The translations under genes and the position numbers were made by a program. From contig JBBISH010000011.1 in the NCBI GenBank assembly GCA_037441385.1, positions 22,830-86,829 of the forward strand: DNA of 64,000 nt, written 5' to 3'. The DNA is from Myxococcales bacterium (lineage in GTDB: Bacteria > Myxococcota_A > UBA9042). The first letter of the stretch is position 1; every line of letters starts with the position of its first letter. This document shows positions 9,620-24,572 of the stretch, piece after piece. The notes under the pieces are model-generated. The model was not told the DNA's origin. It worked only from the letters and a program-made list of their open reading frames with translations, and did not search any database.

Positions 9620-12600
9620 CTAATCCTTGCGGTTTTCCGGCACCGGCTGGATGTCGCCGCACTGTCCGTCGCTCATGCACGGCTTCAGTTCAGGCCAAAC
9701 CTTGCCGCCCGAGCCCAGGTACAGGCCGATGGCGTGCATGACCATCGCGCCGTGGTCAAAGAACGATTGCTTGTCGCAGGTAGCCGGGTCCTGCCCTGCC
9801 TTGCCTGCCGCCGACTTGCACCGGGCGCGCAGGGCGTCGACCTGCTCGCCAGGGTTCCAGAATCCGTGCTTGCCCTCTGGTTCCACGTACGGAAAGAAGG
9901 TGCCCGACTGGCCGCCGGCCTGGTCCGGACCGATCGCGTGCGTGTGCAGCGGCGGGCTTAGGCGCGGCACCGGCCAACCATCCTTGCCCTCGGGTGCCGG
10001 CGCGGCGAGCTGCACCTTTTGGCCTTGCGGCGGCAGACTGGACTGACCGGCCGCCACCGGCGTGGCGCTCTGCGACAGGTCTTCCACATCGAACAGGAGG
10101 CCATTGCCCGAGCCATCCAGAAAGCGCGGAATCTTGTCCACCGCTTCTAGCACGTAGGTATCGATGACGGTTTGGTTGACCGTTCGGCCGCCCCATTCGG
10201 CGATCTTCTTCTTCCAGTCCAACAGACCCGCCGCGCGGCCGATGGCCGCCCCGGTATTGACCGGCACGTTCATGTCGCCAATGGTGTTCAACACGATCGC
10301 GTGAGTCCCCATGTCCGCGTCAAAGAAGTGCGAGGCCCACACCGCCGGGTCGGCCGGATCCAGGACCATCTGGGCAAAGCCAAAGAATTTTCGTAGTTCT
10401 GGCCGCGCTCGGTGCAAGCCCAGGCCTTCCGCTAACGGCGCCAGGGCCTCGCCCGCCTTGAATTGCAGCGGTGCCGAGCGGTAGTGGAAGGCAATGTCGT
10501 GGGTGAACTGGTCGACCACAAAGAGTTTCTTGGCGTCCAGCTTGACCGCGCAGGCCTTGTGCTTGAGCCGATCGACTTGGCCCGACACGAACGCATCGCC
10601 CTTGTAGAACGTCAGCAGGTGCCGTTGCGGCGGCACGGTGATGTCCGAAGCGAGGCCGACGCGAAACGCGAGGCAGCGCGCGGTGCACACTTGCTTGTCC
10701 GCGACCGCGGCATCGGCCGTGCAGGTGGCCAAACAGCCCTTGTCCACAAACAGGCGGGCGCAGTCGTACTCGAAATTGCTGACATTGTCGGCGCGCACGC
10801 TGTCACCGGCGGCCAACTGGCCCCACAGCTCGGCGGGCACGCTCGCGACTTCTTTGTCGTACGTGTCGTTGAGCGACGGCACGATGGTGTGGATGCTCAT
10901 CGTCGACGTCGCCGGGTTGGGCGTGCTCACGTACAGCGGCCCCATCAAGCGCAGCTGCACCGACTCGCGCACACCGCCCTGGATCGACCGCACGCCCACG
11001 TCGATCAAACCGCCGCCGCCCGAAACCGGAACCACGGCGCTGATCTCGGTCTCTACGCCGCCCATCACGGCGCTCATGATGCCGCCCAGCGAGCCGCCCA
11101 TCATGAAGATCGGCATCGTCGGCCCGCCCACGTCGACCACGCCGTCGCCGTCGGTGTCGCCGGCCAGGTCGTCCAACTTGCCGTTGCCGTTCAGATCCAC
11201 CGGCCACACCGTCTTGCCGTCAAAGGCGCGCAAGATCCGCACCAACTGCATGTAGTCCACGGCGGTCTGGCGCACCACGTCGCGGGTGTGGAAGGTATAG
11301 GCAGTCCAGAAGTCGGCGCCCGAGTCGGCTAGACCGTCCAAGTCCTGATCCCAGTTGCGATTGCTGGTCAGCGCTTTGGCCAGGTTCAGCAGGCCAAAAC
11401 CACCAAAGACGTTGGTCAGCAGCGCGCTGTCTTGCTTGCCCAGGGTGAAGCCGTGGCTCACGTTGTCGATGGCGATGGTGATAAAGCCCATGCGCGCCAA
11501 GTACGGGCCAAAGCTGAAGGCTTCGGTCTTGTTGCCCGTATAGCCGTGGCCCAGGATCACGATGCCGCGCGGCTTGCCGTCGGGCGTGGCCTCCTTGCGC
11601 GGGGTCATCGCCCAAAACGTCACGGTCTCGCTGCGGTCCTTGGCCTTCTTGCTCGCCACGTCGGGCGGCCAGCTCATGTCGTTGTAGCCCAGGTAGTGGC
11701 CGTCTTTGTCTTGGCGGTCGAACAGTTGCGGGCTTTGGTAGGTGCCAAAGAAGTGCACGCCCACGTACTTGAGCGCCTCGCCAAAACGCTTGGACTGTTC
11801 CGGCCCGCCCGTGCCGACCAAACCACCCGCGATGATGAGCTGGGCGACTTGCTGGAACGACTCGCCAGAGAGCGTGTACTTCGTCTCGAATTTTGGATGC
11901 TTGGGGTCGTTGTCGAACAACGGCAGCAGTTCGCCGAGTTGGGGCGGGTAGGCCTCGTGCAGGTGCTTTTGCGCGCCGGTGCCATACAAACCCTGGCGAA
12001 CTGCACGCAGGTCGGCCTCAATGCTGCCCGTGGTGAACGACCAGGCAAAGGCGATGTCGCCCAGACCCAGGCCACCAAAGTCCTTGCCGTGACTAGCTAA
12101 AATCCCTTCCAAGGGCCGCAGCGCCTCGGTCTGCTGGAGGTGGTGGATGTATAGGCCCGGCGATCCCACGGGCTTGCCCTGCAGGTCCAGCACCCGCCGC
12201 GTCACCAGCACGGCGTAGGTGGTGCGCTCGCGCAGCGGAACCAAGGGCCGCAACAGAAGCGTATTGGTCTCGCGCTCGTAGAACGTCATCAGCGCGTCGG
12301 CGCGCTCGGCCAGGTTCATCTCGCCGGGCTTCTTGGTGACGCCGGGCAAGTAGTTGGGCTTGTCCAGTACACCGTCCAGGTCGTCGTCTTCGCCCGGGTC
12401 CAGCGCGCCATTGCCATTGGCGTCCTCGTCGTGCTCTTCAAACGACAGTGTCAGGCTGTCGCCGCGCGCGTCGCCCCGCCAATAGCCGCCGATTTGCTCC
12501 AGTACTTGCGGGAAGTTGCCGTTGCCCACGTCCAGCTCGCGCGGCTGGCCAAAGGTAGGCGACCCCTCTGTGATATCGACCAGATAGACCGCGTCATCGG

Positions 12601-12970
12601 CAAAGGCGTAGTCGTCGCCGTGGTGCCGCAGCATGAGCGACTTGGGATCGATGGGCCCGTCGAACGGCACGCTGATCGGCGAATACGTGCCCCAACCGTC
12701 CAGCTGATCGACCAGCTGACGCGTCCGACTTTCCATGTTAGTGTCGGCCAGTTGCGAAGCATTGATGCGCCGCAGCGTGGGCGAACTGGCGTCGTAGCGC
12801 GTCGCCAGGTCGTTCGGCAGCGGAATTTCTGGCAGCGGCTTGGCGTCAAAATCGATCTTGACGTGGACGCTGGCGGCGCCGGCTTTGGCCAAGCCCTCGG
12901 GCTCGCTCTGACAAGCGCTCGCCGCCAGAACTAGCCACAAGTGCGCGAACCATCTTGAGTGCCTCTGCAT
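9620..12970 (-). CDS. Large lipoprotein with an Ig-like N-terminus and alpha/beta-hydrolase (lipase-like) domain
   Basis: Lipobox-like ASAC; 'P.PNDL', 'ILGHGYTG', nucleophile elbow 'GGSLGG', candidate catalytic 'GDMNVP' and 'KHGF'; DxNxNG/DxDGDG Ca-binding motifs; GGGAGG RBS. Confidence 0.75.
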   Translation of the reverse strand: MQRHSRWFAHLWLVLAASACQSEPEGLAKAGAASVHVKIDFDAKPLPEIPLPNDLATRYDASSPTLRRINASQLADTNMESRTRQLVDQLDGWGTYSPISVPFDGPIDPKSLMLRHHGDDYAFADDAVYLVDITEGSPTFGQPRELDVGNGNFPQVLEQIGGYWRGDARGDSLTLSFEEHDEDANGNGALDPGEDDDLDGVLDKPNYLPGVTKKPGEMNLAERADALMTFYERETNTLLLRPLVPLRERTTYAVLVTRRVLDLQGKPVGSPGLYIHHLQQTEALRPLEGILASHGKDFGGLGLGDIAFAWSFTTGSIEADLRAVRQGLYGTGAQKHLHEAYPPQLGELLPLFDNDPKHPKFETKYTLSGESFQQVAQLIIAGGLVGTGGPEQSKRFGEALKYVGVHFFGTYQSPQLFDRQDKDGHYLGYNDMSWPPDVASKKAKDRSETVTFWAMTPRKEATPDGKPRGIVILGHGYTGNKTEAFSFGPYLARMGFITIAIDNVSHGFTLGKQDSALLTNVFGGFGLLNLAKALTSNRNWDQDLDGLADSGADFWTAYTFHTRDVVRQTAVDYMQLVRILRAFDGKTVWPVDLNGNGKLDDLAGDTDGDGVVDVGGPTMPIFMMGGSLGGIMSAVMGGVETEISAVVPVSGGGGLIDVGVRSIQGGVRESVQLRLMGPLYVSTPNPATSTMSIHTIVPSLNDTYDKEVASVPAELWGQLAAGDSVRADNVSNFEYDCARLFVDKGCLATCTADAAVADKQVCTARCLAFRVGLASDITVPPQRHLLTFYKGDAFVSGQVDRLKHKACAVKLDAKKLFVVDQFTHDIAFHYRSAPLQFKAGEALAPLAEGLGLHRARPELRKFFGFAQMVLDPADPAVWASHFFDADMGTHAIVLNTIGDMNVPVNTGAAIGRAAGLLDWKKKIAEWGGRTVNQTVIDTYVLEAVDKIPRFLDGSGNGLLFDVEDLSQSATPVAAGQSSLPPQGQKVQLAAPAPEGKDGWPVPRLSPPLHTHAIGPDQAGGQSGTFFPYVEPEGKHGFWNPGEQVDALRARCKSAAGKAGQDPATCDKQSFFDHGAMVMHAIGLYLGSGGKVWPELKPCMSDGQCGDIQPVPENRKD

Positions 12971-12985
12971 GGTCCCTCCCGCAGG

Positions 12986-14674
12986 CTACGGCGCCTCGCG
13001 GCCCAGCCAAGCCAGCGTAACTCGCCCAGCTGGAATCGGTTCGTTCAGGCCTGCCAGCGCGCCGCCGGGGATCAGCACGCCCGCCTCAGCACAGAGGAGC
13101 AGGTGGGCCGGATAGTGCGGCACCGGCATGCGCCAACGCACGCCCGCGTCCAACTCGGCGCCCAGCAGCGAGCCCGTGGCAGCGTTGCCCAAGAAGTTGC
13201 GAGGAGAACCGCCACCTTCGCTGACCGTCCAGCGCGGGTCCGCGAGCGGCACCGACGTCCACGCCAGCAAAGCGCCGCCGTAGACCTCGCCGCGCTCCAA
13301 GAAGGTGTGGCCTACTTTGGGGAACACGACCCAGCTATTGGTCACCGCGCCGCCGGTCGCCAATCGATCCAGGTCCTCGGGCGGCTGGCCGACCAAGTTG
13401 GGGTCCGAGGCCGAGAGCCTCGCCCGTCCGGTCTGCCACGCAAGGACCCGCGGAAACAGCACGATGCCCAGCTGCGCGTTTGGGTCGGCCTTGAACGCCG
13501 TCACCTTGCCGTCGCCCAAGTTGGCATCGCCCGAGAGCCAAGCCAGGTCCAGCTGCGTGCGCAACCCAGGAGTCAGCTCGGCCGACGCCCGCAGCAGCGC
13601 AGCGCCTTGCAGCACGTCGTGCTTGGGGAAGTCGGGGCTGGGCGCCAACGTGGTCGTGCCCGCGATCAAAGCGGCCTCGCCCTGCAGGCGAATCGCGTGC
13701 AACGGCGTGGGCAGGCGCAAATCGAAGGCGCCGTCGACCAGACTGACGTCCAGGCCGCGCCCAGAGGCCGCGGTCTGACTCCTCCCGGCATAGTACAGGC
13801 CAAGCCACTCGTCCGACGCCACGTACCAGCGCACCGAGCCAACGACTTGATTGGCCGTGTCGCCGTCCAGCAGGACATCGTCGGCAAACACGCGGTCGAC
13901 CGCGAGCGACACCGCCAGGCCGCGCAAGACCGAAGACGTGTTGCGGAAAGGGGTCAAGACCAGCGCGCCGCGGACCACGCGGTCGCCGACCCGCGGCACA
14001 TAGAACCACTGCTTGTCCATGCCCTGGACTCGGCCATCGCGTGCGACCAAGCCATTGCCCCACGACGAGCCCATCAGGCCGCCGCGCACCTCCGCAATTT
14101 GATTCCAGTTCGCCCCGATCCAAGCTTCGGTTGGCTCTAGCTTGCCCTCGCGACTGGCCGGCAAGCGATCCCCGGGCAGCGGGGTCAGACCGCCCCAACC
14201 GCCGCTCAGCAGTTCGCCGCCCAGCGCGCCGCGCACGACCAAGCGGCCCAGCCAGCGGCCAGTCTGACCGCCCACGCCAAAGTGCAGGCGACCATCCAAG
14301 TCCGCATTCGCCGGCGATTTCGTGCCTGTGCGGTCGACCATGAACTGGCCCATTTGGGTAGCGGTGGCCAGGATCGCAACGTCGGGGTGCCAGCTGGGCC
14401 GATTGGCAGCTTCGCGCATGGCCAGGGCCATGACGCCGGGCGGCGTGGCGATCCGCTCCATAGTAGGCGTGGCCGATTCTGCTGGAGGCACAGCGGGTTT
14501 GCTGGCAGGCCCCTCGGCTGGCGTGGCGGCAGCGGGCGTATCGACCGCATCGGCCCAGGCTGGCCCCGTTCCGGCCAGCGCCAGCACCGCCCAACCCAAC
14601 AAGGTCAAGCGCGGCAGGAGCACGCCCGGCCGGGCCCAACTCCCAGCGCCCCAGGGCGTTCGCGTGCGAGACAT
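12986..14674 (-). CDS. Putative outer-membrane beta-barrel protein
   Basis: Signal peptide, Pro/Ala linker, alternating beta-strand pattern ('LLGAELDAGVRW'), AAAGGA RBS; 15 bp upstream of the hydrolase gene. Confidence 0.65.
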   Translation of the reverse strand: MSRTRTPWGAGSWARPGVLLPRLTLLGWAVLALAGTGPAWADAVDTPAAATPAEGPASKPAVPPAESATPTMERIATPPGVMALAMREAANRPSWHPDVAILATATQMGQFMVDRTGTKSPANADLDGRLHFGVGGQTGRWLGRLVVRGALGGELLSGGWGGLTPLPGDRLPASREGKLEPTEAWIGANWNQIAEVRGGLMGSSWGNGLVARDGRVQGMDKQWFYVPRVGDRVVRGALVLTPFRNTSSVLRGLAVSLAVDRVFADDVLLDGDTANQVVGSVRWYVASDEWLGLYYAGRSQTAASGRGLDVSLVDGAFDLRLPTPLHAIRLQGEAALIAGTTTLAPSPDFPKHDVLQGAALLRASAELTPGLRTQLDLAWLSGDANLGDGKVTAFKADPNAQLGIVLFPRVLAWQTGRARLSASDPNLVGQPPEDLDRLATGGAVTNSWVVFPKVGHTFLERGEVYGGALLAWTSVPLADPRWTVSEGGGSPRNFLGNAATGSLLGAELDAGVRWRMPVPHYPAHLLLCAEAGVLIPGGALAGLNEPIPAGRVTLAWLGREAP

Positions 14675-14881
14675 GGCGTCCTTTGGCGGCTCCAGGGGCC
14701 GCGGCGACAACGGGTGCCGTGGCGGCAACGTACGCAGATCGGCGCCAGAGCGTCAAGGGGCCGGCAGCGGTCGCAGGTCCAGAGACTTGTGCTGCGTAGT
14801 CTGGCGCGGGCATCGCAAAACGGCCGCCCCGCCCACCTGCCGCAGCAGGCCGACGAGGGCCGCAAACCCTTGTGCGTGCGA

Positions 14882-17872
14882 CTACTTCACGGTCGCCATC
14901 GCCGCCTTGGTGGCGTTGATGGTCTCGCTGAAGAAGGTCGGGTTGTGTAGGCCGCCGCTCTTGTCGTTGTTCAGCAGTTGCATGTTCCAGATGCCCTTGA
15001 ACACGGTGGTGCCCGCGCCGATGACCGCGGTGTTCTTGCCGGCCACGGGCGTCTGCAGCGCCGTCCACGACACGCCGAACTGGGTCACGCTGGTGGTGGT
15101 GTTGTCCGTCCAGGTGATCGAGATGGCCTTGGGCATGGTGAACCACAGGAAGAACGAGGTGCCCACGTACTTGGCCTCGATGCTGGTCGGCACGTCGGTC
15201 AGCTCCACGTTGTAGGTGGTGCTGGAGCTGGACGAATACAGGCCGTTGCCGTTGTTCGCCCGCACGAGCACCTTGCCGTTGGCGGCAATCGCCTGGCTGG
15301 TCAGCACCTTGGCGGCGGCGCCGATGCTCTGGCCCATCTCGGTCATCTGCATGGCGATCACGCCCTTGAGCGCCTTGCCGTCCACGTTGGCGGCGTGGCA
15401 CGAAGCGCAGACTTTCTCGTCTGGCTTGAAGCTGTGGTTGCCGGTCTCGTTGGCCGCGGCTTGCGCCTCGGTCGGGATTTTGACGTGGCAGGCCGCGCAA
15501 GTATCGGTGACCGCCAAGTGCTTGCTGGGCGTGTAGCGCGGCATGAAGTAGGCGTTGAAGCCGTACAGCACGTCAGTCTGCGCCGGGGCGTGCGGGCCCG
15601 AGGTCGAGGTCGTCGCGGCGACAAAGTCGGTGTGCTCGCCGTTGCGGGTGTTGTGGCAGGCCATGCAGGTCAGGCCGGTGCCGGCGCCGGTGATGCCGGT
15701 CATGCCGTTGGGCAGCGCGGCCACGCTGTCGTACAGACGGACTTGCGCCGGGTGATCCGCGGCGTGCGGGTCGTGGCAGGTCTGGCAGGTCTGCGGCTCC
15801 ACGGTCGAGCGCTGCAGGCCGGCCGCGCGCAGGTAGGCTTCGTCGGCGGGCGAGCCGTCGGGCTTGACGATCAGGCCAGCGTTGCCTTTGTCGAGCTGAT
15901 CGGCGTACAGGACGAAGCCTTGCGCGGCGTGGCAGCGGCCACAGTGGGCGGCGTTGGCGCCACTGGCTTCAAACGTGCCGCGGTCGGCCAGGGCCGGGTT
16001 GGCGTGACCGCTGGTCTGCCACTGCGCGGGCTTGTAGTGATGCGGGCCTTCCTGGTGGCACTGCGCGCAGACCGCCGTGCTCATCGACACGCGCGCAAAG
16101 TGCAGGTCGTTGACCACGGCCGCGTTCTTGCCCATGCCCGACGACGAGTGCCCTTGCGAATTGTTGGGGCCGTGGCAGTTCTCGCACTGCACGCCCGCGA
16201 GCTTGCCCAGGTCCGGGTGATCTTTCTGCAGCGCATCCCAGGTGCCGGCGGCGGGCTTGAAGACCCAGCCGTTGTTCTTCTGCACGTCGTCAAAGCCGCC
16301 GTTGTCCACAAACGGCGAGTAGCCTACTGTGTGGCATTCGATGCAGCCCTGGCCAAAGAACGCGCCGCCCTTGACGCCGTTGAACTTGTCGATGCTGCCC
16401 AGCAGGTGGTTGGTCTTGGCCCACGCGCCAAATGGATCCGGGGCCACGGTGTTGTTGTGGCACGCCTTGCAGACGTCCTGGCCGTTGTACATGCCGGCCC
16501 AGCTGCCCGCGTAGATGGTCAGCGTCATCTTGGCGACCGTCTCGGTGAGCACGTAAGCGCCCTTGGCGTCAGGGGTAAAGTGCGGGAACTGCGTGGTAGC
16601 GTCGACCAGCTTGGCGGTCGAGCCGCTGGCGCCACTGCTGTCCAACGTCCAGTTCCAGCTGGTCACGGTGGCGTCGCCCTGCAGGTACACGGGCAGGCCC
16701 AAGGTCACGTTGCGCAGTCCGGCGCCGGGCGCGGCCGACATGACCGTCACGTTGGCCGTGCTGCTGTGGCCCTGCGGGTCCTTGACGGTCAGGCTGAAGG
16801 TGTAGTGACCAGCGTCGTCCGGCGAGATGCCCACCACGCCAAAGCGGATCGGCGTGGCAAAGGTCTTCGAGTTCGGCAGCGACAACGTCTTGAAGGTCAG
16901 CGTGTTGCTGGTGGGGTTGGTCAGGGTCACGGGCAGGCCGCCGGTCTGGGTCCACTGATAGCTCAGCTTGGCCACGTCGCTGTCGGCGTCGGTCACCGTC
17001 GCCTTCAGAGCCACGTTGGCGTCGTAGCCCGCCAGCAGATCGCTCGCCACCACGATGGTCGGTGCGCCGCCACTCTTGCTGTCGGCCGTCAGGGCCGCGC
17101 CCACGTTGGTCGTGTTCAGCGCCACAACGCCCACGTTGTTGATCTGGGCGGTGGCGTAGCCGGCCAGGCTCACCGTCAGCTGGTAGGCACCGATCGGCAC
17201 GCCGGTCAGCGTGAAGGTGCCATCAGCGCCCGACTTGACCTGCAGACTCAACGGGTTGCTGGTCACCAGCGCGCCAACCAGGGCCGAGCCGTCGGCCGCC
17301 GCCGTCACCTTGCCGCTGATGGTGCCCTTGGCCGAGGCTGGGTCGCCGCTGTCGCCCTTGGGGCCTTGGGCGCCGTCTTTGCCGTTCACGCCGTCTTTGC
17401 CGTCTTGCACGGTCGCGGTCGGCGAGCCTGGGCAGTTGATGGTCTTGGTGCCGGCGCCGTCGTCGGCCACGGTGCAGGGCGCGCCGTCTTTGCCGTTCTT
17501 GCCGTCGTATACGGTGACTGTGCTGCCGTCAGGGCAGGTGATGGTCTTGCTGCCGTTGGCGTTGGCGGCCACCGTGCAGTTCTTGCCGTCCAAACCGGCC
17601 TTGCCGGCGGGCAACGTCACGGTGGTGCCGTCTTCGCAGGCGATGGTGGCGCTGCCGTCGGTATTCGCCTTGACCGCGCACGACTTGCCGTTGGCGCCGG
17701 GGGCACCGTTGGCCCCGTTCGTCCCGTTCTGCCCGGCCGCGCCCGTCGCGCCGATCGGCCCGGTTGCTTCACAGCCGGCCAACGAAAGCAGGGCTGCGAA
17801 CGCCCCGACGAGCACCCTGCCAAAGACAGGGGTGGCCATGCCCGTTTGGTTCCACTTGATTGCGTTCATCAC
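14882..17872 (-). CDS. Nine-heme c-type cytochrome lipoprotein with collagen-like, carboxypeptidase-regulatory-like and PKD-like N-terminal domains
   Basis: Lipobox LAGC; G-X-Y triplets; three 'C.V......TI.C' repeats; 9 CxxCH motifs in the C-terminal half; C-terminal 'GLHNP'. Confidence 0.9.
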   Translation of the reverse strand: MMNAIKWNQTGMATPVFGRVLVGAFAALLSLAGCEATGPIGATGAAGQNGTNGANGAPGANGKSCAVKANTDGSATIACEDGTTVTLPAGKAGLDGKNCTVAANANGSKTITCPDGSTVTVYDGKNGKDGAPCTVADDGAGTKTINCPGSPTATVQDGKDGVNGKDGAQGPKGDSGDPASAKGTISGKVTAAADGSALVGALVTSNPLSLQVKSGADGTFTLTGVPIGAYQLTVSLAGYATAQINNVGVVALNTTNVGAALTADSKSGGAPTIVVASDLLAGYDANVALKATVTDADSDVAKLSYQWTQTGGLPVTLTNPTSNTLTFKTLSLPNSKTFATPIRFGVVGISPDDAGHYTFSLTVKDPQGHSSTANVTVMSAAPGAGLRNVTLGLPVYLQGDATVTSWNWTLDSSGASGSTAKLVDATTQFPHFTPDAKGAYVLTETVAKMTLTIYAGSWAGMYNGQDVCKACHNNTVAPDPFGAWAKTNHLLGSIDKFNGVKGGAFFGQGCIECHTVGYSPFVDNGGFDDVQKNNGWVFKPAAGTWDALQKDHPDLGKLAGVQCENCHGPNNSQGHSSSGMGKNAAVVNDLHFARVSMSTAVCAQCHQEGPHHYKPAQWQTSGHANPALADRGTFEASGANAAHCGRCHAAQGFVLYADQLDKGNAGLIVKPDGSPADEAYLRAAGLQRSTVEPQTCQTCHDPHAADHPAQVRLYDSVAALPNGMTGITGAGTGLTCMACHNTRNGEHTDFVAATTSTSGPHAPAQTDVLYGFNAYFMPRYTPSKHLAVTDTCAACHVKIPTEAQAAANETGNHSFKPDEKVCASCHAANVDGKALKGVIAMQMTEMGQSIGAAAKVLTSQAIAANGKVLVRANNGNGLYSSSSSTTYNVELTDVPTSIEAKYVGTSFFLWFTMPKAISITWTDNTTTSVTQFGVSWTALQTPVAGKNTAVIGAGTTVFKGIWNMQLLNNDKSGGLHNPTFFSETINATKAAMATVK

Positions 17873-17992
17873 CCTACCTCCATGGACTCTGGCCCTCTTG
17901 GCCCCTGCTGCCGCGCTCGCGGCCCCTTTCAGCGCTCGACTCGCCTGGACTGCGGAACGGTCCTCACCCTTGTGGGCCCGTCCGTACCTCGG

Positions 17993-19156
17993 CTACGTGT
18001 GGCACGGCGTGCACGCCGGTGCCGTCTTGGGATCTTGCTTGCTCGACCAGCCCGGCGGGTGCGGGTTGCCGCCCGGCTCGCCGACTTTGTGGCACTTGAC
18101 GCAGTTGCTGGCGGCGCCGCGGTCGTGGCAGGCCGCACAGGCCGTGATGTCTTGGCGCGCGGCCCGACCGTGGTTGTCCACACCGCCGCGGTCCATCCAC
18201 CCGGCTGGGTGCGGGCTGGGGCCGCCGCCGGCTACGGGCTGCGAAAGGCCCATGCGTTCGTGGCACTTGACGCATGTCTGCGGCGCGTGGCAAGTCTGGC
18301 AACCCTTGCTGTCCAGCTTGGCTTCCATCGAGTGGCGGCTCATGTAGTCGCCGCGGTGGTGGAACGACGCGTCAACCCGGTCGGCATGCAGCAAGTCTGG
18401 GCGGATCGCGTTGTTCTTGCTGTGGCACTCGGCGCAGCTAGTGTCTTGGTGGCAGTGGCCGCAGACCTTGCTCTGGCCCTTGGCGACGACGCCGTGGCGG
18501 CGCAACCAGTCCGCGCCGTGGTCGAAGTCGCGCACCGGCTTGTCCTGCATGGATTTCAGACCCTTGTGGCAGGTGTAGCAGTTCTCGGTGCGGAAATCGC
18601 GGCTGTGGCAGCTGGTGCAGGCGACCAGCATGTTGGGGCGCATGTCTTCAGACACCTTACCGTGCTTGCGGATGTCGCCGTGGCAGCGCACGCAGGTGTC
18701 TTTGTCGCCGGCCTTTTGCACGCGGTCCAGGTGGTTCTTGTGGCTGAAGTTGACGTCAAAGGTGCGGCGCGTGTCGACGAACGTGGTGGGCATGCTGGGG
18801 TTGGCGTGGCACTTGTCGCAGCCGCCCTCGGCTTTGTCGTGGCAGTCCATGCACTTGGCTTCGGTGGGGATCTCGCGCTTCTTGCTAAGGTCTTCCGAGG
18901 CGGCAATGCCGTCGTGGCAGTCGGCGCAGGCCAGGCCCTGGCAGGCGCCCGTGTCGCCCTTGGCGTTGGGCAGGCAGTCGGCGTCTTCGGCGGCGGCGAC
19001 GTGCCAATTGTGCGAGAACTTGACGTTGTCGCGCACGTTGCGCTCCGGTGCGCTGCCGCCCCACGAGCCGAGCAGCCAGGCGCAGGCAGGTAGCGTTGCC
19101 GCCATCGCCAGTACCAGCGCGAGCCGGAGCAGTGCGGATCCTTGCAAGGATTTCAT
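17993..19156 (-). CDS. 13-heme c-type cytochrome (two c7/c3-like triheme domains plus paired CxxCH)
   Basis: 13 CxxCH counted; two 'FSH..H' motifs; signal/lipoprotein peptide (LPAC); ATGA overlap with the barrel gene. Confidence 0.93.
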   Translation of the reverse strand: MKSLQGSALLRLALVLAMAATLPACAWLLGSWGGSAPERNVRDNVKFSHNWHVAAAEDADCLPNAKGDTGACQGLACADCHDGIAASEDLSKKREIPTEAKCMDCHDKAEGGCDKCHANPSMPTTFVDTRRTFDVNFSHKNHLDRVQKAGDKDTCVRCHGDIRKHGKVSEDMRPNMLVACTSCHSRDFRTENCYTCHKGLKSMQDKPVRDFDHGADWLRRHGVVAKGQSKVCGHCHQDTSCAECHSKNNAIRPDLLHADRVDASFHHRGDYMSRHSMEAKLDSKGCQTCHAPQTCVKCHERMGLSQPVAGGGPSPHPAGWMDRGGVDNHGRAARQDITACAACHDRGAASNCVKCHKVGEPGGNPHPPGWSSKQDPKTAPACTPCHT

Positions 19157-20658
19157 GGATTTCCTCCGGCGGGCTTGGCGTCGTCGGCTTTCTCGGGCGC
19201 TTTGTCGGGGGCCTTCTCGGCGGGCTTGTTCGGGGCTTTCTCGGCCGGCTTGCCGTCGCCCTCGTCGTCCTTCTTCTCTTCGGCCTTCTTCTCGTCGGCC
19301 TTTTTCTCTGGCGGGGCTGCGACTTCGGTAGCACCCGCGCCCGAGACCAGGGCAGCCGGAATCGGGCGGGGAGCCATCAACATGCCCTCGTTGACGGTCA
19401 AGGTCAGCAGCCCCAGGGCCTGCGCGTCAAAGTACGGGTTGCGCCAAATCTGGGCGTCCACGCCAGCGTCTAGCCCGCGAATCACGGCATAGCGGGCCGA
19501 GGCGCCGCCGCGGACCGAGAACGTCTCGCCGTGCACCGCCCGCATGAAGGCGTAGCAGTCGATGTCAGCCGCCACGGTCAGGCGGTCCATGGGCTTGCCG
19601 CTGCCAAAGATGCGCACTTGGTCGTAGCCGTTGTCGCCATTGAACAAGCGCGCGTACTGCACGCCGGCCCGGTAGCGCCCCGCGGGGTCGATCTTGACGC
19701 GGCCTTCCACGAAGGCGCGGTAACCGTCTGCCACGCCATCGTTTTTCACAAAGCGGTCGTAGCCGCCCGCCACGGTCAGCGCGCCGGGGGTGATCAAGTC
19801 AAAGCTGCCGCCGACCATGCCGTCGGTCCGCTGCAAGAACGCCTGGAAGATCGACGTCTTGCTCATCCACGCCAAGGGGTCGCGCAACTCGGCCTTGGTG
19901 TGCACGATCAAGAAGTCCTTGACCTTGTAGTTCAAGTCCAACCGCGCCTGCTGCAAGCGGTTCTCTAGCAGGTCCTGCGCGTAGAAGGCCACCAGCGTCA
20001 GCGGGTCCAACATGCGCAGCGACCCGTCGATCGACAGCGACCGGCGGTTGGTGTAGTCCACCTTGGCGTTCGCACCGGGCACGTCGTCGATGGCCTGCAG
20101 GCCCACGCCGACATGGCCGAGTTCCCAGGGCGTCCACGCGACGCGAGCGCCGTAAGTGGGCGCCTTGAAGACATTGTCAAAGTTCTCGTACACACCCGTG
20201 CCAAAGTAACCGTCGACGCGGACGGCCTTGGGCAGGTGCATGATCAGCGAGGCGCCGTCCATGTACTGGTACTGGGCGCCGCCCGTGAATACGGCGATAC
20301 GGCCAATCTGGAAGCGGATTTCGTCCTTCTTGGCCGCCCAGCCCAAGTTGCCAAGCATCAGATCCGCGCCGTGCCCCGCAGGGCCGCTCGCGAACTGCTG
20401 CTGCAAGTAGCCGTAGGCCGAAGCAAAGATGCCCGTGCCGCCCGCGTTGGTGGCGTCAAAGGACAGCAGCGCCAAGCCTGGGACGCTCGTATCGGTCGCG
20501 GGGGTCGTACCGGGACGCAACTGCCCGGTGAACAAGCCGATCGCCTTCAAGCTGGCGTGGATGTCGCCCGTTTCGGCAGCTTGCGCGGCCAGCGCGGTCC
20601 CGCCAAGGGCCAGCGCCAGTGCCGCAGTCAAAAACCGCTTGGGGAATCTGCAGTTCAT
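19153..20658 (-). CDS. Outer-membrane beta-barrel (porin of a porin-cytochrome conduit)
   Basis: ATG 20658 overlaps the upstream stop (ATGA); Sec signal ending AQA; amphipathic beta strands with aromatic residues; K/E/P/A-rich tail; flanked by multiheme genes. Confidence 0.75.
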   Translation of the reverse strand: MNCRFPKRFLTAALALALGGTALAAQAAETGDIHASLKAIGLFTGQLRPGTTPATDTSVPGLALLSFDATNAGGTGIFASAYGYLQQQFASGPAGHGADLMLGNLGWAAKKDEIRFQIGRIAVFTGGAQYQYMDGASLIMHLPKAVRVDGYFGTGVYENFDNVFKAPTYGARVAWTPWELGHVGVGLQAIDDVPGANAKVDYTNRRSLSIDGSLRMLDPLTLVAFYAQDLLENRLQQARLDLNYKVKDFLIVHTKAELRDPLAWMSKTSIFQAFLQRTDGMVGGSFDLITPGALTVAGGYDRFVKNDGVADGYRAFVEGRVKIDPAGRYRAGVQYARLFNGDNGYDQVRIFGSGKPMDRLTVAADIDCYAFMRAVHGETFSVRGGASARYAVIRGLDAGVDAQIWRNPYFDAQALGLLTLTVNEGMLMAPRPIPAALVSGAGATEVAAPPEKKADEKKAEEKKDDEGDGKPAEKAPNKPAEKAPDKAPEKADDAKPAGGNP

Positions 20659-23363
20659 GGGTCCACCCATCCGTTGATGTGGTAGCCGTCCTTGAGGTTC
20701 AAGGTGCCGTCCGCGTTGACCGTCTTGGAGTGGCAGGCGGCGCAGGCCTTGGTGGTGCTGCTGCCCACGTAGGGGTGACCCGCCAGAACCGACGGCGGCA
20801 GGCCGTGGCAGTCGCCGCAAGTCACGCTGCCTGCTGCGGTCCACGTCACGGTGGGCTTGGCGGCACTGTCTTGGGTAGCGCCGTGGCAGTAGGTCTGCGA
20901 GCAGGTTTGCTTGACCGGGTCGTAGGTCGGCTTGGAGCCAAAGTACTTGGCCAAACCGCCGGGGAACACGATGGTGCTGAGGCCGGCAAAGTGCCCGGGC
21001 TCGTCCACCGTCTTGGGCAGCTTGTGGCACTCTTCGCAGGCCATGCCGCCGCCGCTGAACTGCTTGCCGTTCAAGTGGGCCGCGTGGGCGCCGACCATGG
21101 GCGAGGTGGGGACGCTATTGCCGGCGGTGTCCGGGGCCGGCGCGCCCTTGCTCTGCTCGGTCCCGTGGCAGGCGTAGCAGTTGCTGGGGTAGGCCGTGTC
21201 CACTTTGCCATTGTAGTGGAGGCCGCCGGCCAAGATGTTCTTGGTCGAATCCACACTGGTCGCGTGGCACTTGCTGCAATCCTTGACGGTTTGCGGGTGG
21301 GCGTCGCCGCTGGCGATGGTCTTGGGGGGCTCTTGGTGGCACTGGTTGCAGGTGCCGGCGCCGATGGCGAACTCGACCTTGCCGTCGTAGTGCGATCCGC
21401 CGCTGACCACATGCATGTCCGCGTCGATACTGGCGGCGTGGCAGGCGCTGCACTGGCCGGCCTGCGGGTGCGGCTTGCCAGCGGCGGTGGTCTTGGGCGG
21501 TAGCGCGTGGCAACCCGTGCACGAGGTGGGCGCGGTGGCGACGACGACCTCGACCGTGCCATCCATGTGCTTGCCACCACTGATGATCTCTTTGCTGCCC
21601 TTGACCGAGGCCGAGTGGCAGTCGCCGCAGACGGTCGAGGTCGGGTGCGCCTTGCCGGTGGCCGCGATGACTTTGGGCGGCGCGGCGTGGCAGCCGCTGC
21701 AGCTGGTGGGGTTGGCGGCGAGCTGCACTTCGACCTTGCCGTCCATGTGGCTGCCGCCGCTGATGATCTTCTTGTCCGCGTCCACAGTGCCGGCGTGGCA
21801 GTCGTTGCACACCGCCTGCTGCGGGTGGGCCTTGCCGGTGGCGGCGATGACCTTGGGCGGCGCGGCGTGGCAGCCTTCGCACGACGTGGGCACGGGCGCC
21901 AGCTGCACTTCGACCTTGCCGTTCATGTGGCTGCCGCCAGCGACGAGCGTGTTGTCGGCCGCGACCGTGCTGGCATGGCAGTCGTTGCATTGGCTCTGCT
22001 GCGGGTGCGGTTTGCCGGTGGCGGCGATGGTGACCGGCGGCGCCAGGTGGCATCCGTCGCAGGCGGTGGGCTTGGCCGCGATTTGCACTTGGACCTTGCC
22101 GTCCATGTGGGTGCCGCCCTCTACGATGGCCTTATCCGCGGTGACCGAGCTGGCGTGGCAGTCGTTGCATTGGTTTTGCTGCGGGTGTGGCTTGCCCGTG
22201 GCCGCGATCACGACCGGCGGCGCCAGATGACAGCCGTCGCACGAGGTCGGCTTGGCCGCCAACTTGACGTCGACCTTGTCGTTCATGTGCGTGCCGCCAG
22301 CGATCAGCGCGTGCGAGGCGTCCACGGTCGACGCGTGGCAGTCATTGCACTGGCTCTTTTGGGGGTGCGGCTTCTTGTCCTTGCCGGCGACCAGCGGCGG
22401 GGCACCGTGGCAGCCGTTGCAGCTGTTGCCGGCGGGCAGCAGGGCTACTTCCACCTTGCCGTTCATGTGCGTGCCGCCCGCGATCAGGTCGCGCGTGCCC
22501 TTGACGGTGGTGGCGTGGCAGTCGCCACAGTTGGCCGCGACCGCTGGGTGCTTGTCGGTGAACGGCGGCGCGCCGTGGCAACTGGCGCAGTTCACGTTGT
22601 TGGCCAGCACCACGTCCACCTTGCCGTTGATGTGCATGGCGCGGTCGGTGACGACCATCTTGGCGCCCATGGTGGCGGCGTGGCAGGTTTCGCAGTTGGT
22701 GTCTTTGGGGTGCGGGGCGGGCGGCGGCGCACCGTGGCACGAGTCGCAGCCGCGCTGGCTGCCGTCCACTTTGGTCCACAGCGGCTTGCTGTCCTTGCCG
22801 GGCGCCTTCAGCGTCGCGCCGTGGCAGTAGCTGTTGCTGCAGGTGTTGCTGGCCGCGTCGTAGGTCGGAGTCGCGCCACCCGCCAAGGCCAAGCCGCCAA
22901 AAGTCACGGTGGCTTTCTCGTCCGGGGCGTCCAAGTGGCCGGTTTGATACTTGCTCGTCGGCACGATATGGCAGGTCTGGCAGGGAATTGGTGTGTGAAC
23001 CGGCCCGTAGCCCAGGTGCTGCTGGTGGGCACCCACGCCGGCGTCGGTCGTCGCGGTCTGCCCTTTGAGCCCGCGCGGTGGGGCGGCGTTGTTGGTGGTG
23101 CCGTGGCAGGCGGCGCAATCGGCGGTCTTCAGCACTTCGTCTGCAGTCGGCGCGGGCGTCTTGGCGACCGGGGTCACGGCGACCCGCGCGGTGTCGCAAC
23201 CGCTGGCCCACACCAGGGCCGAGGCCAAAAGCGCCAAGCCGATTGGCAAGCGCCTGGCGGCGGTCGGGTCGGCGCCGCGGCGACGCGGACTCTCGATGTG
23301 CAGACGGTGGGGATGCGGACTGTCGGGATGCGGACTGTCTGCGCACAGGTTGACCTTGCCCAT
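20655..23363 (-). CDS. 26-heme c-type cytochrome lipoprotein (CxxxxCH/CxxCH domain family)
   Basis: 24 CxxCH plus 2 CxxxxCH (CSNSYCH, CSQTYCH); lipobox-like ASGC; GAGG RBS. Confidence 0.93.
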   Translation of the reverse strand: MGKVNLCADSPHPDSPHPHRLHIESPRRRGADPTAARRLPIGLALLASALVWASGCDTARVAVTPVAKTPAPTADEVLKTADCAACHGTTNNAAPPRGLKGQTATTDAGVGAHQQHLGYGPVHTPIPCQTCHIVPTSKYQTGHLDAPDEKATVTFGGLALAGGATPTYDAASNTCSNSYCHGATLKAPGKDSKPLWTKVDGSQRGCDSCHGAPPPAPHPKDTNCETCHAATMGAKMVVTDRAMHINGKVDVVLANNVNCASCHGAPPFTDKHPAVAANCGDCHATTVKGTRDLIAGGTHMNGKVEVALLPAGNSCNGCHGAPPLVAGKDKKPHPQKSQCNDCHASTVDASHALIAGGTHMNDKVDVKLAAKPTSCDGCHLAPPVVIAATGKPHPQQNQCNDCHASSVTADKAIVEGGTHMDGKVQVQIAAKPTACDGCHLAPPVTIAATGKPHPQQSQCNDCHASTVAADNTLVAGGSHMNGKVEVQLAPVPTSCEGCHAAPPKVIAATGKAHPQQAVCNDCHAGTVDADKKIISGGSHMDGKVEVQLAANPTSCSGCHAAPPKVIAATGKAHPTSTVCGDCHSASVKGSKEIISGGKHMDGTVEVVVATAPTSCTGCHALPPKTTAAGKPHPQAGQCSACHAASIDADMHVVSGGSHYDGKVEFAIGAGTCNQCHQEPPKTIASGDAHPQTVKDCSKCHATSVDSTKNILAGGLHYNGKVDTAYPSNCYACHGTEQSKGAPAPDTAGNSVPTSPMVGAHAAHLNGKQFSGGGMACEECHKLPKTVDEPGHFAGLSTIVFPGGLAKYFGSKPTYDPVKQTCSQTYCHGATQDSAAKPTVTWTAAGSVTCGDCHGLPPSVLAGHPYVGSSTTKACAACHSKTVNADGTLNLKDGYHINGWVDP
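21541..22620. repeat. Intragenic 180-bp tandem repeats encoding 60-aa diheme modules
   Basis: Near-identical sequence recurs at 21721, 21901, 22081, 22261 and 22441 (for example 'cttcgaccttgccgtccatgtggctgccgcc'); more diverged copies lie on both sides. Confidence 0.9.
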
Positions 23364-23422
23364 GTTGGCCTCGACGAATACGGCGACGTGTTCGAGCTTC
23401 GCTGCCGCTCGAACCGTAGCGT

Positions 23423-23438
23423 AGCAAGCGACATACCA
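23423..23438 (-). promoter_or_regulatory. Putative sigma54 (-24/-12) promoter of the cytochrome operon
   Basis: Minus strand TGGTATGTCGCTTGCT = GG-N10-GC with TTGC, about 60 bp upstream of ATG 23363. Confidence 0.7.
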
Positions 23439-24183: not shown

Positions 24184-24231
24184 TACAGATCGGTGTACAG
24201 ATCGGTGTACGGATCGGTGTACGGATCGGTG
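24184..24231. repeat. Intergenic tandem repeat, 4 x 12 bp (TAC[A/G]GATCGGTG)
   Basis: Read directly from the sequence; no spacers. Confidence 0.9.
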
Positions 24232-24572
24232 CAGTGGGCCCTACCGCGGTTCGACAGCGCCCACCAAGGTCCCTATACTTCGCGGCGCTGCGGCACGGCC
24301 ATTTGGGCCGCCGCCGCGCTGTCACCCCCAACGGGGACTGCCCCTGGTCCCGTGGCGCTTGCCCATGATCCAAGCCGTTGCGCTGGTTGTGGACGTTGAA
24401 ATCCCGAGGCCTTGGGCACAGGGCCAACGGCGGGCTGCCAACGGCCACGGCATCCTACGCCTCCCGATTCGGCGGCCAGCCAGTCTGGCGTCTTCTGACC
24501 AGGCCAGGCAGGGCCACGCTGTCGGGACGAACCTGGGATTTGGTGCAGCAGAACGCAGTCTTGGGGATTGAA

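Follow-up and report, generated by a model that had tools for sequence, protein, structure and literature searches.

A putative Pcc/Ext-type electron conduit of the outer membrane encoded by a divergent porin–cytochrome gene cluster in a Myxococcota bacterium

The question raised by this locus, which lies in a window of 64,000 nucleotides of Myxococcales DNA, is whether four co-oriented genes (A–D) specify a conduit carrying electrons across the outer membrane and, if so, whether that conduit is of a known kind. Our analysis suggests that A–D probably form a Pcc/Ext-type conduit that carries electrons through the outer membrane for extracellular respiration.

Gene order and heme motifs of the locus

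A motif and junction check confirmed the four co-oriented genes of the original prediction, with 26, 0, 13 and 9 heme motifs (48 by motif count) and ATGA coupling of the first three (Table 1). ATGA overlaps join A to B and B to C, and D follows C after a gap of 120 bases with its own GGAGG ribosome site ahead of it. The upper limit given for the locus, 23438, had to be corrected, as it is no gene boundary; A begins within it, and the same start is kept in locus L001. A motif search found no CxxCK in A, B, C or D. The non-motif histidines of mature A, C and D number 29, 15 and 18, respectively; as this suffices for bis-His ligation, and as further genomes keep the same gene order, the heme motifs are not due to chance. 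Two lipoproteins, A and D, had been foreseen, and to these C, with a lipobox-like Cys25, adds a third predicted one. Cys25 is kept in 11/11 close homologs of C, and the lipobox motifs of A and D are kept in their homologs (read by eye), that of A (xGC-DTAR) in most of its 13 close homologs.

Table 1. Genes of the cluster, with coordinates in the window
Gene	Coordinates	Strand	Length (aa)	Heme motifs	Predicted product
A	23363–20655	minus	902	24 CxxCH + 2 Cx4CH = 26	lipoprotein cytochrome, modular wire
B	20658–19153	minus	501	0	outer-membrane beta-barrel
C	19156–17993	minus	387	13 CxxCH	lipoprotein, predicted barrel plug
D	17872/17869–14882	minus	996/995	9 CxxCH	accessory lipoprotein

Pfam and NCBIfam searches identified a glpD-like gene and a barrel/lipase pair as flanking genes. 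Two downstream genes (14728–12986 and 12970–9620) were considered as cluster parts and rejected, adjoining the core in 2/11 and 1/11 loci, respectively, and having paralogs elsewhere in the genome. A promoter and terminator scan of the locus stayed at chance level, and GC content is flat across it (64–70 %), a profile with no sign of a recent island.

The barrel and its predicted plug

The 501-aa product of gene B had been taken for a transmembrane barrel, and AlphaFold2 indeed returned a plug-less barrel of 22 strands (pLDDT 92.2); its C-terminal tail is variable and of low complexity. The fold matches of B are outer-membrane barrels, with generic 18–24-strand types among those listed and MtrB at rank 19 (Z 15.8, rmsd 4.8, 339 aligned). 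No Pcc complex is among these fold-search matches, an absence that proves nothing. B has no Pfam or NCBIfam family match, nor was a PDB sequence match found for A, B, C or D singly or for the barrel profile.

For comparison with Geobacter-type systems we used locus L138, which, compared by eye, is nearly identical to the extA and extC sequences given in the PMC11492766 supplement. Pairwise BLAST of B against ExtB-like proteins gave no match. A barrel profile (A2), on the other hand, matched the gene that precedes the ExtC-type pentaheme gene in 39/39 loci and 0/118 other long frames, and a close-kin barrel profile (A1) did so at E < 1e-3 in 32/39 ExtC-type loci. With hhalign, B and the ExtB-like gene of L138 align over 332 columns (20 % identity, E 1.2e-4), at a probability of only 55.6. 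B-type and ExtB-type barrels are 14–19 % identical and fall into separate, well supported clades. By these comparisons B appears to be a remote homolog of the ExtB/ExtE (Pcc) porins, with evidence that covers the ExtB type only.

The link for C lies in its middle hemes. Over 115 aa, the part with hemes 6–10 is 31 % identical to the ExtC-like L138 protein (E 3e-17), and a C-type profile (A6) matched 59/60 ExtC-type proteins at E < 1e-19, the remaining one being a fragment; judged by these alignments, this part of C is homologous to Geobacter ExtC/ExtF. Hemes 6–13 are colinear with OmaB when heme spacing is compared by eye, and the N-terminal part (hemes 1–5/6) is c7/ActA-like, matching ActA and c7 structures. 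No plasmid match was found for C.

AlphaFold2 modelling of C by itself gave a pLDDT of 41 and was left out of our reading. Modelling of the barrel together with the 13-heme protein, as proposed in the original prediction, placed C in the barrel with a score of 0.79 (runs 0.80, 0.79 and 0.75), against 0.00 for the best of three controls; the mark for this score is reached by 116/157 solved complexes and 2/215 mismatched pairs. Part of the score may reflect likeness to MtrAB. The runs share at least 72 % of contacts with a partner pLDDT of at least 71, residues 209–385 of C contact 21/22 barrel strands, and hemes 7–13 lie inside the modelled barrel. Furthermore, the contact residues of B alternate along 21/22 strands, the pattern of lumen-facing residues, and show higher conservation than other residues (top-residue frequency 0.46 vs 0.38). 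Independent of the complex model, in families f23 and f38 only the last seven hemes are retained beside the barrel (9/9 loci examined).

Gene order was also compared across genomes. A barrel gene is followed by a 12–13-heme gene in 40/40 chosen loci, and the order is conserved with B and C constant and A and D variable; only B and C are the fixed core of the cluster. The barrel profile matched 140/301 genomes of the phylum, and a C homolog was absent at 2/20 weak barrel loci. Atlas clusters holding B are commonest in Gemmatimonadota, Binatota and Myxococcota, and homologs of the cluster genes carry Myxococcales or Myxococcota names. Thus, barrel fold, a complex model above its controls, conserved synteny and homolog names all support the proposal of an outer-membrane conduit in a Myxococcota organism.

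The lipoprotein cytochromes and the route of electrons

Repeat alignment resolves A into two three-heme caps with the Cx4CH motif (TIGR01904/PF09698; 98.7 bits for TIGR01904, cut-off 27) and ten two-heme units of ∼55–60 residues. Close homologs contain 14–36 hemes, an even number in 13/13, and in other families five-heme repeats stand in place of the two-heme ones. By eye, A resembles the C-terminal module of OmcG (supplement of PMC11492766) and is OmcG/OmcH-like. It may be an OmcG-like wire with a length that differs among kin by multiples of two hemes. D carries a collagen/CFSR stalk, carboxypeptidase-regulatory-like and PKD domains (Pfam), followed by a nonaheme head that lacks CxxCK and is predicted to be NrfA-fold-like (profile A7 against NrfA structures, E 1.4e-5). 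Judged by eye, its final hemes and the helix motif at its C-terminus are similar to those of OmcB, and its type of stalk is also found on an OmcA/MtrC-family decaheme of the same genome. D adjoins the core in 3/11 loci and is present at full length in 4/40.

Outward respiration, for which we infer direction, acceptor, topology, sidedness and partners, is the likeliest use of the conduit. C, held by its N-terminal lipid, would thread its last seven hemes through the 22-strand pore that B is modelled to form in the outer membrane. Its first six hemes would not enter the pore; they would most likely sit on the periplasmic side and be fed by periplasmic carriers drawing on quinol oxidases encoded elsewhere (CbcL-like, NapC/NirT–NrfCD). 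At the outer face, electrons would move on to A, acting as a lipoprotein wire on the surface with a reach set by the number of its two-heme repeats, and/or to D, whose nonaheme head would be held away from the surface on its collagen stalk. When oxygen is low, the acceptors served by A and D would be Fe(III)/Mn(IV) oxides or humic quinones.

As each of the three cytochromes is predicted to be a lipoprotein, their placement is not fixed by sequence alone. Lipoproteins face the periplasm by default, and A and B are translationally coupled. Both points would suit the same conduit with A as its periplasmic half in the place of ExtA, spanning the periplasm and feeding C from inside, with repeat number matching periplasmic width and the six N-terminal hemes of C facing outward or lying beside A. 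The order A-B-C-D also mirrors extA-extB-extC-extD (L138; PMC6148476). However, A is no ExtA homolog, aligning with the ExtA-like protein of L138 only in scattered CxxCH stretches (best 26 %, E 4e-4); the OmcG/OmcH proteins it resembles are listed as extracellular (PMC11492766); and 14–36 hemes is a wider range than periplasmic width is likely to show. We therefore regard a periplasmic A as rather unlikely.

No inner-membrane quinol oxidase lies within the cluster. The original prediction saw no quinol oxidoreductase or heme-maturation genes in the window; the genome does encode quinol-linked cytochromes and maturation proteins at other sites. The host genome contains four PF01578 matches, two NapC/NirT matches over the cut-off, an NrfC/NrfD module, a protein with seven hemes and cytochrome b that we read as CbcL-like, two OmcA/MtrC-family decahemes over the cut-off, two heme-copper oxidases and, by our reading, an ACIII-like cluster. 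As there are two such oxidases, metal respiration would not be obligatory. The oxidases and the ACIII-like cluster would also serve an inward conduit, in which reduced humics, Fe(II) or neighbouring cells donate electrons that reach oxygen or nitrogen oxides via ACIII/bc-type complexes and the oxidases, and porin–cytochrome conduits do work in both directions (PMC5566968, PMC10553843). Nevertheless, the closest characterised relatives, Ext/Pcc, act in reduction, and CbcL-like and MtrC-family proteins are typical of reducers, leaving inward flow improbable.

The NrfA-like signature of D and the freely varying heme number of A would also accord with A and D being mainly an electron store or surface redox enzyme, merely charged by B and C, with a soluble oxyanion of nitrogen or sulfur as substrate for the head of D and no mineral respiration; capacitor roles have been proposed for large Anaeromyxobacter cytochromes (PMC2330069). 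D, however, lacks the CxxCK catalytic heme, has histidines enough for all-bis-His ligation and is missing from most loci, making such a role very unlikely. With regard to the conduit reading itself, points against it include the remoteness of the barrel–ExtB link, a cluster without a quinol oxidase and a common two-gene stand-alone branch without a surface cytochrome (10/40 loci).

We tentatively suggest that A might be a single-chain cytochrome nanowire, its length tuned by two-heme repeats gained or lost, docked on an ancient barrel–plug module that about half of the searched genomes of the phylum contain. If this is true, electron exchange with minerals, humics or cells in contact, be they prey or partners, would be a trait of Myxococcota at large, beyond Anaeromyxobacter, and a single family of barrel plugs would take in ExtC/ExtF, OmaB and the myxobacterial proteins of 7, 12 and 13 hemes. 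More generally, the range of Geobacter-type Ext/Pcc conduits would widen to uncultured Myxococcota, in which the barrel escapes pairwise searches, and barrel plus plug would be a marker pair for electroactive myxobacteria. Homologs of A form a natural set of cytochrome wires built from repeats and differing stepwise in length, of use in studies of structure and conductance. It can also be predicted that the lipoproteins of the ExtC/ExtF type, which carry annotations as outer-membrane redox lipoproteins, are barrel plugs; PMC6148476 predicts them to be outer-membrane lipoproteins, not plugs.

Comparison with known porin–cytochrome systems

The literature searched, in scope mostly outside subscription journals, yielded neither a description of this cluster nor an experiment on any close homolog; the genes may already be listed with bioRxiv 10.1101/2022.03.26.485925, a report of ExtABC matches and previously undescribed cytochrome clusters from lake Myxococcota. 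With regard to the OetABI/OmcKL conduits (PMC10553843), four short barrel motifs were sought and were absent from 12/17 supplementary files searched.

With MtrCAB/MtoAB/PioAB the cluster shares the principle of a cytochrome in a barrel and a lipoprotein cytochrome outside. Identity with MtrCAB/MtoAB was rejected, as B lacks PF11854 (MtrB/PioB; no match in the 90.9 % complete host genome), C is not of the DmsE/MtrA decaheme type, and B has 22 strands against 28 predicted for MtrB (PMC4245776); the cluster is not of the MtrA/MtrB type. In PCC3 (PMC5566968), too, a porin gene is accompanied by very large cytochromes made of repeats, but its porins reach 42 strands and its cluster includes a five-helix inner-membrane cytochrome b; with a 22-strand barrel and no five-helix inner-membrane protein in the cluster, identity with PCC3 was also rejected.

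Pcc porins are barrels of 18–22 strands (PMC4245776), a range that includes the 22 of B. A Pcc cluster (Shi 2014; Otero 2018) further has an adjacent 5–14-heme partner of the OmaB/ExtC/ExtF family, as fits C, and at least one outer-membrane lipoprotein cytochrome, for which the lipobox proteins A and D are predicted candidates. In group IV, Anaeromyxobacter Adeh_3391/Adeh_3392 are two genes without an outer cytochrome, with a 12-heme plug of 338–344 aa, and their nearest Geobacter relatives include GSU2644/2726 (24 %) and GSU2643/2725 (26–30 %) (PMC4245776, tables). Likened by description and identity tables, both systems are of Myxococcota, pair a porin with one long plug and match the same Geobacter branch; the present cluster differs in having four genes and 13 hemes in 387 aa. 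Loci sought to fit the Anaeromyxobacter description had 7, 11, 12 or 18 hemes, and family members with 12 hemes and ∼344 aa exist (L046). Group I (Geobacter OmbB-OmaB-OmcB) has the same order of porin, plug and surface lipoprotein, the heme spacing of OmaB/C (32-9-46-9-45-10-32) resembling that of hemes 6–13 of C (39-9-45-9-45-12-30), with linker histidines alike (by eye). OmaB, however, has eight hemes and no lipobox, whereas C has five extra N-terminal hemes and a lipid anchor; D differs from OmcB in its nine hemes and collagen/PKD stalk, and a 26-heme gene takes the lead here.

In Geobacter sulfurreducens ExtABCD/ExtEFG (Pcc group V; PMC6148476, PMC4245776), of which the cluster of ExtB and ExtC is needed for electrode reduction (PMC6148476), the porin gene is likewise followed directly by a lipoprotein cytochrome of one family. 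The ExtABCD layout of cytochrome, porin, lipoprotein and lipoprotein recurs in A-B-C-D, and the ExtF/OmaV spacing of 39-9-45 equals that in C (counted by eye), although the ExtC plug has five hemes and C has 13. Strict ExtABCD orthology was rejected: A is not the ExtA dodecaheme, C is not a pentaheme, D is no small ExtD, and the D profile (A7) found no match among cytochromes beside ExtC-type genes. As B and C are remotely homologous to Geobacter ExtB and ExtC/ExtF/OmaB, the novelty of the cluster is lowered; by sequence comparison it is a divergent member of the Pcc/Ext porin–cytochrome kind, with a core that is not new in kind, whose new features are a lipid-anchored 13-heme predicted plug, a variable-length OmcG-like putative wire and a nonaheme, predicted NrfA-fold head on a collagen stalk.

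Gene order and the conserved core

The window (22830-86829 of contig C11 in the host assembly G000; 6.6 Mb, 67% GC, 90.9% complete) carries four co-oriented genes, A to D, and motif and frame counts bore out the heme contents and ATGA overlaps originally noted for them, the overlaps joining A to B and B to C. Gene C had been described there simply as a cytochrome, which its 13 motifs agree with; a lipobox-like Cys25, conserved in 11/11 close homologs, had been missed.

Coordinates and heme motifs of the cluster genes
Gene	Position in window	Strand	Length	Heme motifs
A	23363-20655	-	902 aa	24 CxxCH + 2 Cx4CH
B	20658-19153	-	501 aa	0
C	19156-17993	-	387 aa	13 CxxCH
D	17872-14882	-	996 aa	9 CxxCH

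The 1-kb gap between gene A and a divergent glpD-like gene holds about four imperfect 12-base head-to-tail repeats (24185-24232), adjoining the sole sigma-70-like site found (24251-24279, +), which is at chance level. Elsewhere in the window, a protein with an apolipoprotein N-acyltransferase (Lnt) domain (46820-49483, -) has 888 aa, more than is usual for its kind. At 9620-14728 (-) lies a pair of genes: one, barrel-like and assigned to no family, encodes 580 aa, and the other a lipoprotein of 1116 aa whose alpha/beta-hydrolase region has a sub-cut-off VolA/Pla-1 match. Paralogs of this pair lie on host contigs C44, C48 and C59.

Of 301 genomes from the phylum, a sample in which kin are not independent, 140 were matched by a profile of B (E ≤ 0.001), the host with a single match. 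Forty of the matched loci were retrieved, picked by score and contig size, and in all 40 a 12-13-heme C homolog directly followed the barrel gene. An A-like neighbour was found in 28 of these loci and a full D in four; judged by gene order, the core of the cluster is thus B plus C. Among 20 weaker barrel loci, both genes were present in 13 and, under relaxed search, in two more, the rest comprising cytochrome only (two), a contig-end break (one) and a barrel without a C homolog (two). Ten of 11 loci from named genomes, whose counts overlap with those of the 40 and are not additive, were labelled Myxococcales, Myxococcota or Deltaproteobacteria, and one Enterobacteriaceae, probably a mislabel; this last record (L005) contains the entire cluster at 44-53% identity and is likely a misassigned Myxococcota bin.

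Two branches, with lipoboxes judged by eye, lie apart in the barrel tree: one with a lipobox and mostly with large accessory cytochromes (30/40 loci), the other with neither lipobox nor other cytochromes (10/40). In the related barrel families f23 (5/5 loci) and f38 (4/4), the gene after the barrel encodes only the last seven hemes, 7-13 of C; these minimal pairs (L090, L123-L126, L128-L131) thus keep the predicted in-barrel part. Further variants include a conserved 8-8/9-barrel-7-8-15-6 heme gene array in which a distantly homologous barrel is paired with a 7-heme plug (L133, L134), an internally duplicated 18-heme plug-family protein beside a 29-heme repeat cytochrome (L136, G179:C97), and a barrel homolog divided between two frames (L057, G140:C3).

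The barrel and its predicted plug

Sequence searches of Pfam, NCBIfam and the PDB found no match for gene B. AlphaFold2, given a 121-row alignment, modelled the 501-aa protein as the transmembrane barrel originally proposed, with 22 strands, no plug domain and long loops on the face opposite a set of short turns (pLDDT 92.2). Fold searches returned outer-membrane barrels only, the best being a TonB-dependent receptor (Z 18.8, rmsd 4.7, 353 aligned), with MtrB among the matches (Z 15.8).

Modelling B with C, as had been suggested, gave a complex score of 0.79 (median of three runs), to which likeness to MtrAB may contribute, against 0.00 for the best of three controls; the score mark is reached by 116/157 solved complexes and 2/215 mismatched pairs. 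At least 72% of contacts agreed between runs, with partner pLDDT at least 71. The model supports binding of C to B with hemes 7-13 as plug: residues 209-385 contact 21/22 strands at alternating positions, as well as conserved loops (barrel residues ~234-250 and 311-318), and contact positions are more conserved than the remainder. It also agrees with the natural truncations in f23 and f38. The first hemes of C resemble ActA and c7 structures and make no modelled contact with the barrel. They would lie in the periplasm, since the lipobox-less branch must dock from that side and since residues 259-261 contact the periplasmic half of strands 18-19 and 274-281 the outer loops.

Accessory cytochromes and the host inventory

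Gene A is built from ten units of ~55-60 residues, each of which carries two hemes and a further pair of histidines, together with two caps (TIGR01904) that bear three hemes each and contain Cx4CH. Heme number was even in 13/13 full-length close homologs (14, 16, 18, 26 in four, 28 in two and 36 in four), so the protein lengthens two hemes at a time; its counterpart at more distant loci consists of repeated five-heme modules (15-36 hemes). By eye, the C-terminal portion of OmcG printed in the PMC11492766 supplement matches the A module; that paper lists OmcG/H as extracellular. The simplest reading is that A would be a wire of adjustable length.

Gene D runs from a lipobox through collagen-flanked repeats and carboxypeptidase-regulatory-like and PKD domains to nine hemes. 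Its profile weakly matches NrfA structures (E 1.4e-5), C-terminal helix motif included; none of its motifs is CxxCK, and by eye it resembles OmcB. This stalk recurs in the host ahead of an OmcA/MtrC-family decaheme, and that favours display of D on the surface. At C49:17335-20835 (L118), C141:2-2869 (L112), C38:43700-46252 (L117) and C196:5895-6615, the host has cytochromes with the D-type collagen/CFSR stalk: a 7-heme protein and a pair of OmcA/MtrC-family decahemes that exceed the TIGR03507 cut-off. Read beside the lack of an MtrB match in the host assembly (90.9% complete), stalk-plus-head surface cytochromes may form a modular set using the B-C pore.

The host encodes ~40 frames with at least four CxxCH (counted from a list), four PF01578 maturation matches, NapC/NirT proteins with an NrfC/NrfD module, a protein we label CbcL-like that joins 7 hemes to a cytochrome-b-like tail, plus its split counterpart, two OmcA/MtrC-family proteins over cut-off and two heme-copper oxidases. 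This multiheme, maturation, quinol-linked and oxidase inventory fits a facultative respirer. The survey in bioRxiv 10.1101/2022.03.26.485925 reports that novel extracellular cytochrome clusters are most abundant in Myxococcota, where ExtABC, MtrC and CbcL matches also occur.

Other host loci were also observed. The frame at C10:70753-80625 (L114) spans 3290 codons and contains many TIGR01904 repeats, with 50 CxxCH plus 33 Cx3-4CH motifs (~83 hemes); genes for an HAO-like octaheme and a barrel of AlgE-like type are oriented divergently from it, and shorter paralogs lie at C13:54181-56706 and C168:8724-10899. At C87:12170-18369 (L116), genes for 23-, 13- and 19-heme cytochromes precede one that is barrel-like (~600 aa) and one that resembles an Fe-S/flavoprotein, a candidate second conduit of PCC3-like layout. 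A candidate third, C20:170-28492 (partly L115), has a CcsA-type gene and a 19-heme protein of 2736 codons, followed by an NHL-repeat protein, cytochromes with 4/9/9/3/9 hemes and a barrel-like gene of 667 codons; similar genes occur at C114.

Relation to the Ext and Pcc conduits

In the excerpted PMC11492766 supplement, OmaC/B, OmaV (ExtF) and OmaW (ExtC) of G. sulfurreducens share a repeat with C. By eye, heme spacings of 39-9-45-12 (OmaV) and 37-9-45-13 (OmaW) compare with 39-9-45-9 for C hemes 6-10, and 32-9-46-9-45-10-32 (OmaB) with 39-9-45-9-45-12-30 for hemes 6-13; between hemes 8 and 9, 20/50 ungapped residues are identical in OmaV and C.

Scanning metagenomes with a short ExtC motif gave 61 loci, 60 yielding an ExtC-type protein, nearly all pentahemes spaced 37-9-45-13. 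The barrel profile matched 39/39 of their upstream heme-less frames of at least 250 aa (E 1e-20 to 1e-69) and 0/118 other long control frames. As that profile includes distant unnamed members, the test was repeated with 16 close kin only, matching 32/39 at E < 1e-3 (best 5e-14). At L138, an ExtABCD-like locus near-identical by eye to extA and extC, the porin and the close-kin profile could be aligned across 332 columns (20% identity, E 1.2e-4, probability 55.6), and ExtC and C across 115 aa (31% identity, E 3e-17); ExtA and gene A shared only scattered motif matches. On these alignments, B-C is a remote ExtB-ExtC pair. The originally proposed novelty is thereby narrowed by remote homology to a characterised cluster. 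Pairwise BLAST of B-type barrels against the porins upstream of ExtC-type genes found nothing (identity 14-19%).

Taken together, barrel fold, complex model, conserved synteny and Ext homology uphold the original prediction, and the cluster, taking all readings together, is very probably a trans-outer-membrane electron conduit; the specific model of outward electron flow with A and D outside is somewhat favoured. Our literature search found no account of this four-gene cluster (further related work: PMC5566968, PMC10553843, PMC12133095, PMC2330069, PMC5539420, PMC12545173, PMC13591261). The conduit principle and a characterised remote homolog are already known; the new part is a widespread lineage, so far undescribed, whose proposed wire varies in length, and the plug reading yields a testable prediction about ExtC/ExtF.

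Excerpts of PMC6148476 define such clusters, report ExtABCD as essential for electrode reduction, describe outer cytochromes as often replaced by non-orthologous ones and assign no shared homology to Ext and OmcB components. Our comparisons argue instead that their plug components are homologous, in line with PMC4245776, which groups both systems as Pcc and describes Anaeromyxobacter group IV as two genes with a 12-heme partner. B-C is likely orthologous to group IV, and the conduit belongs to the Pcc/Ext type rather than to a separate kind.
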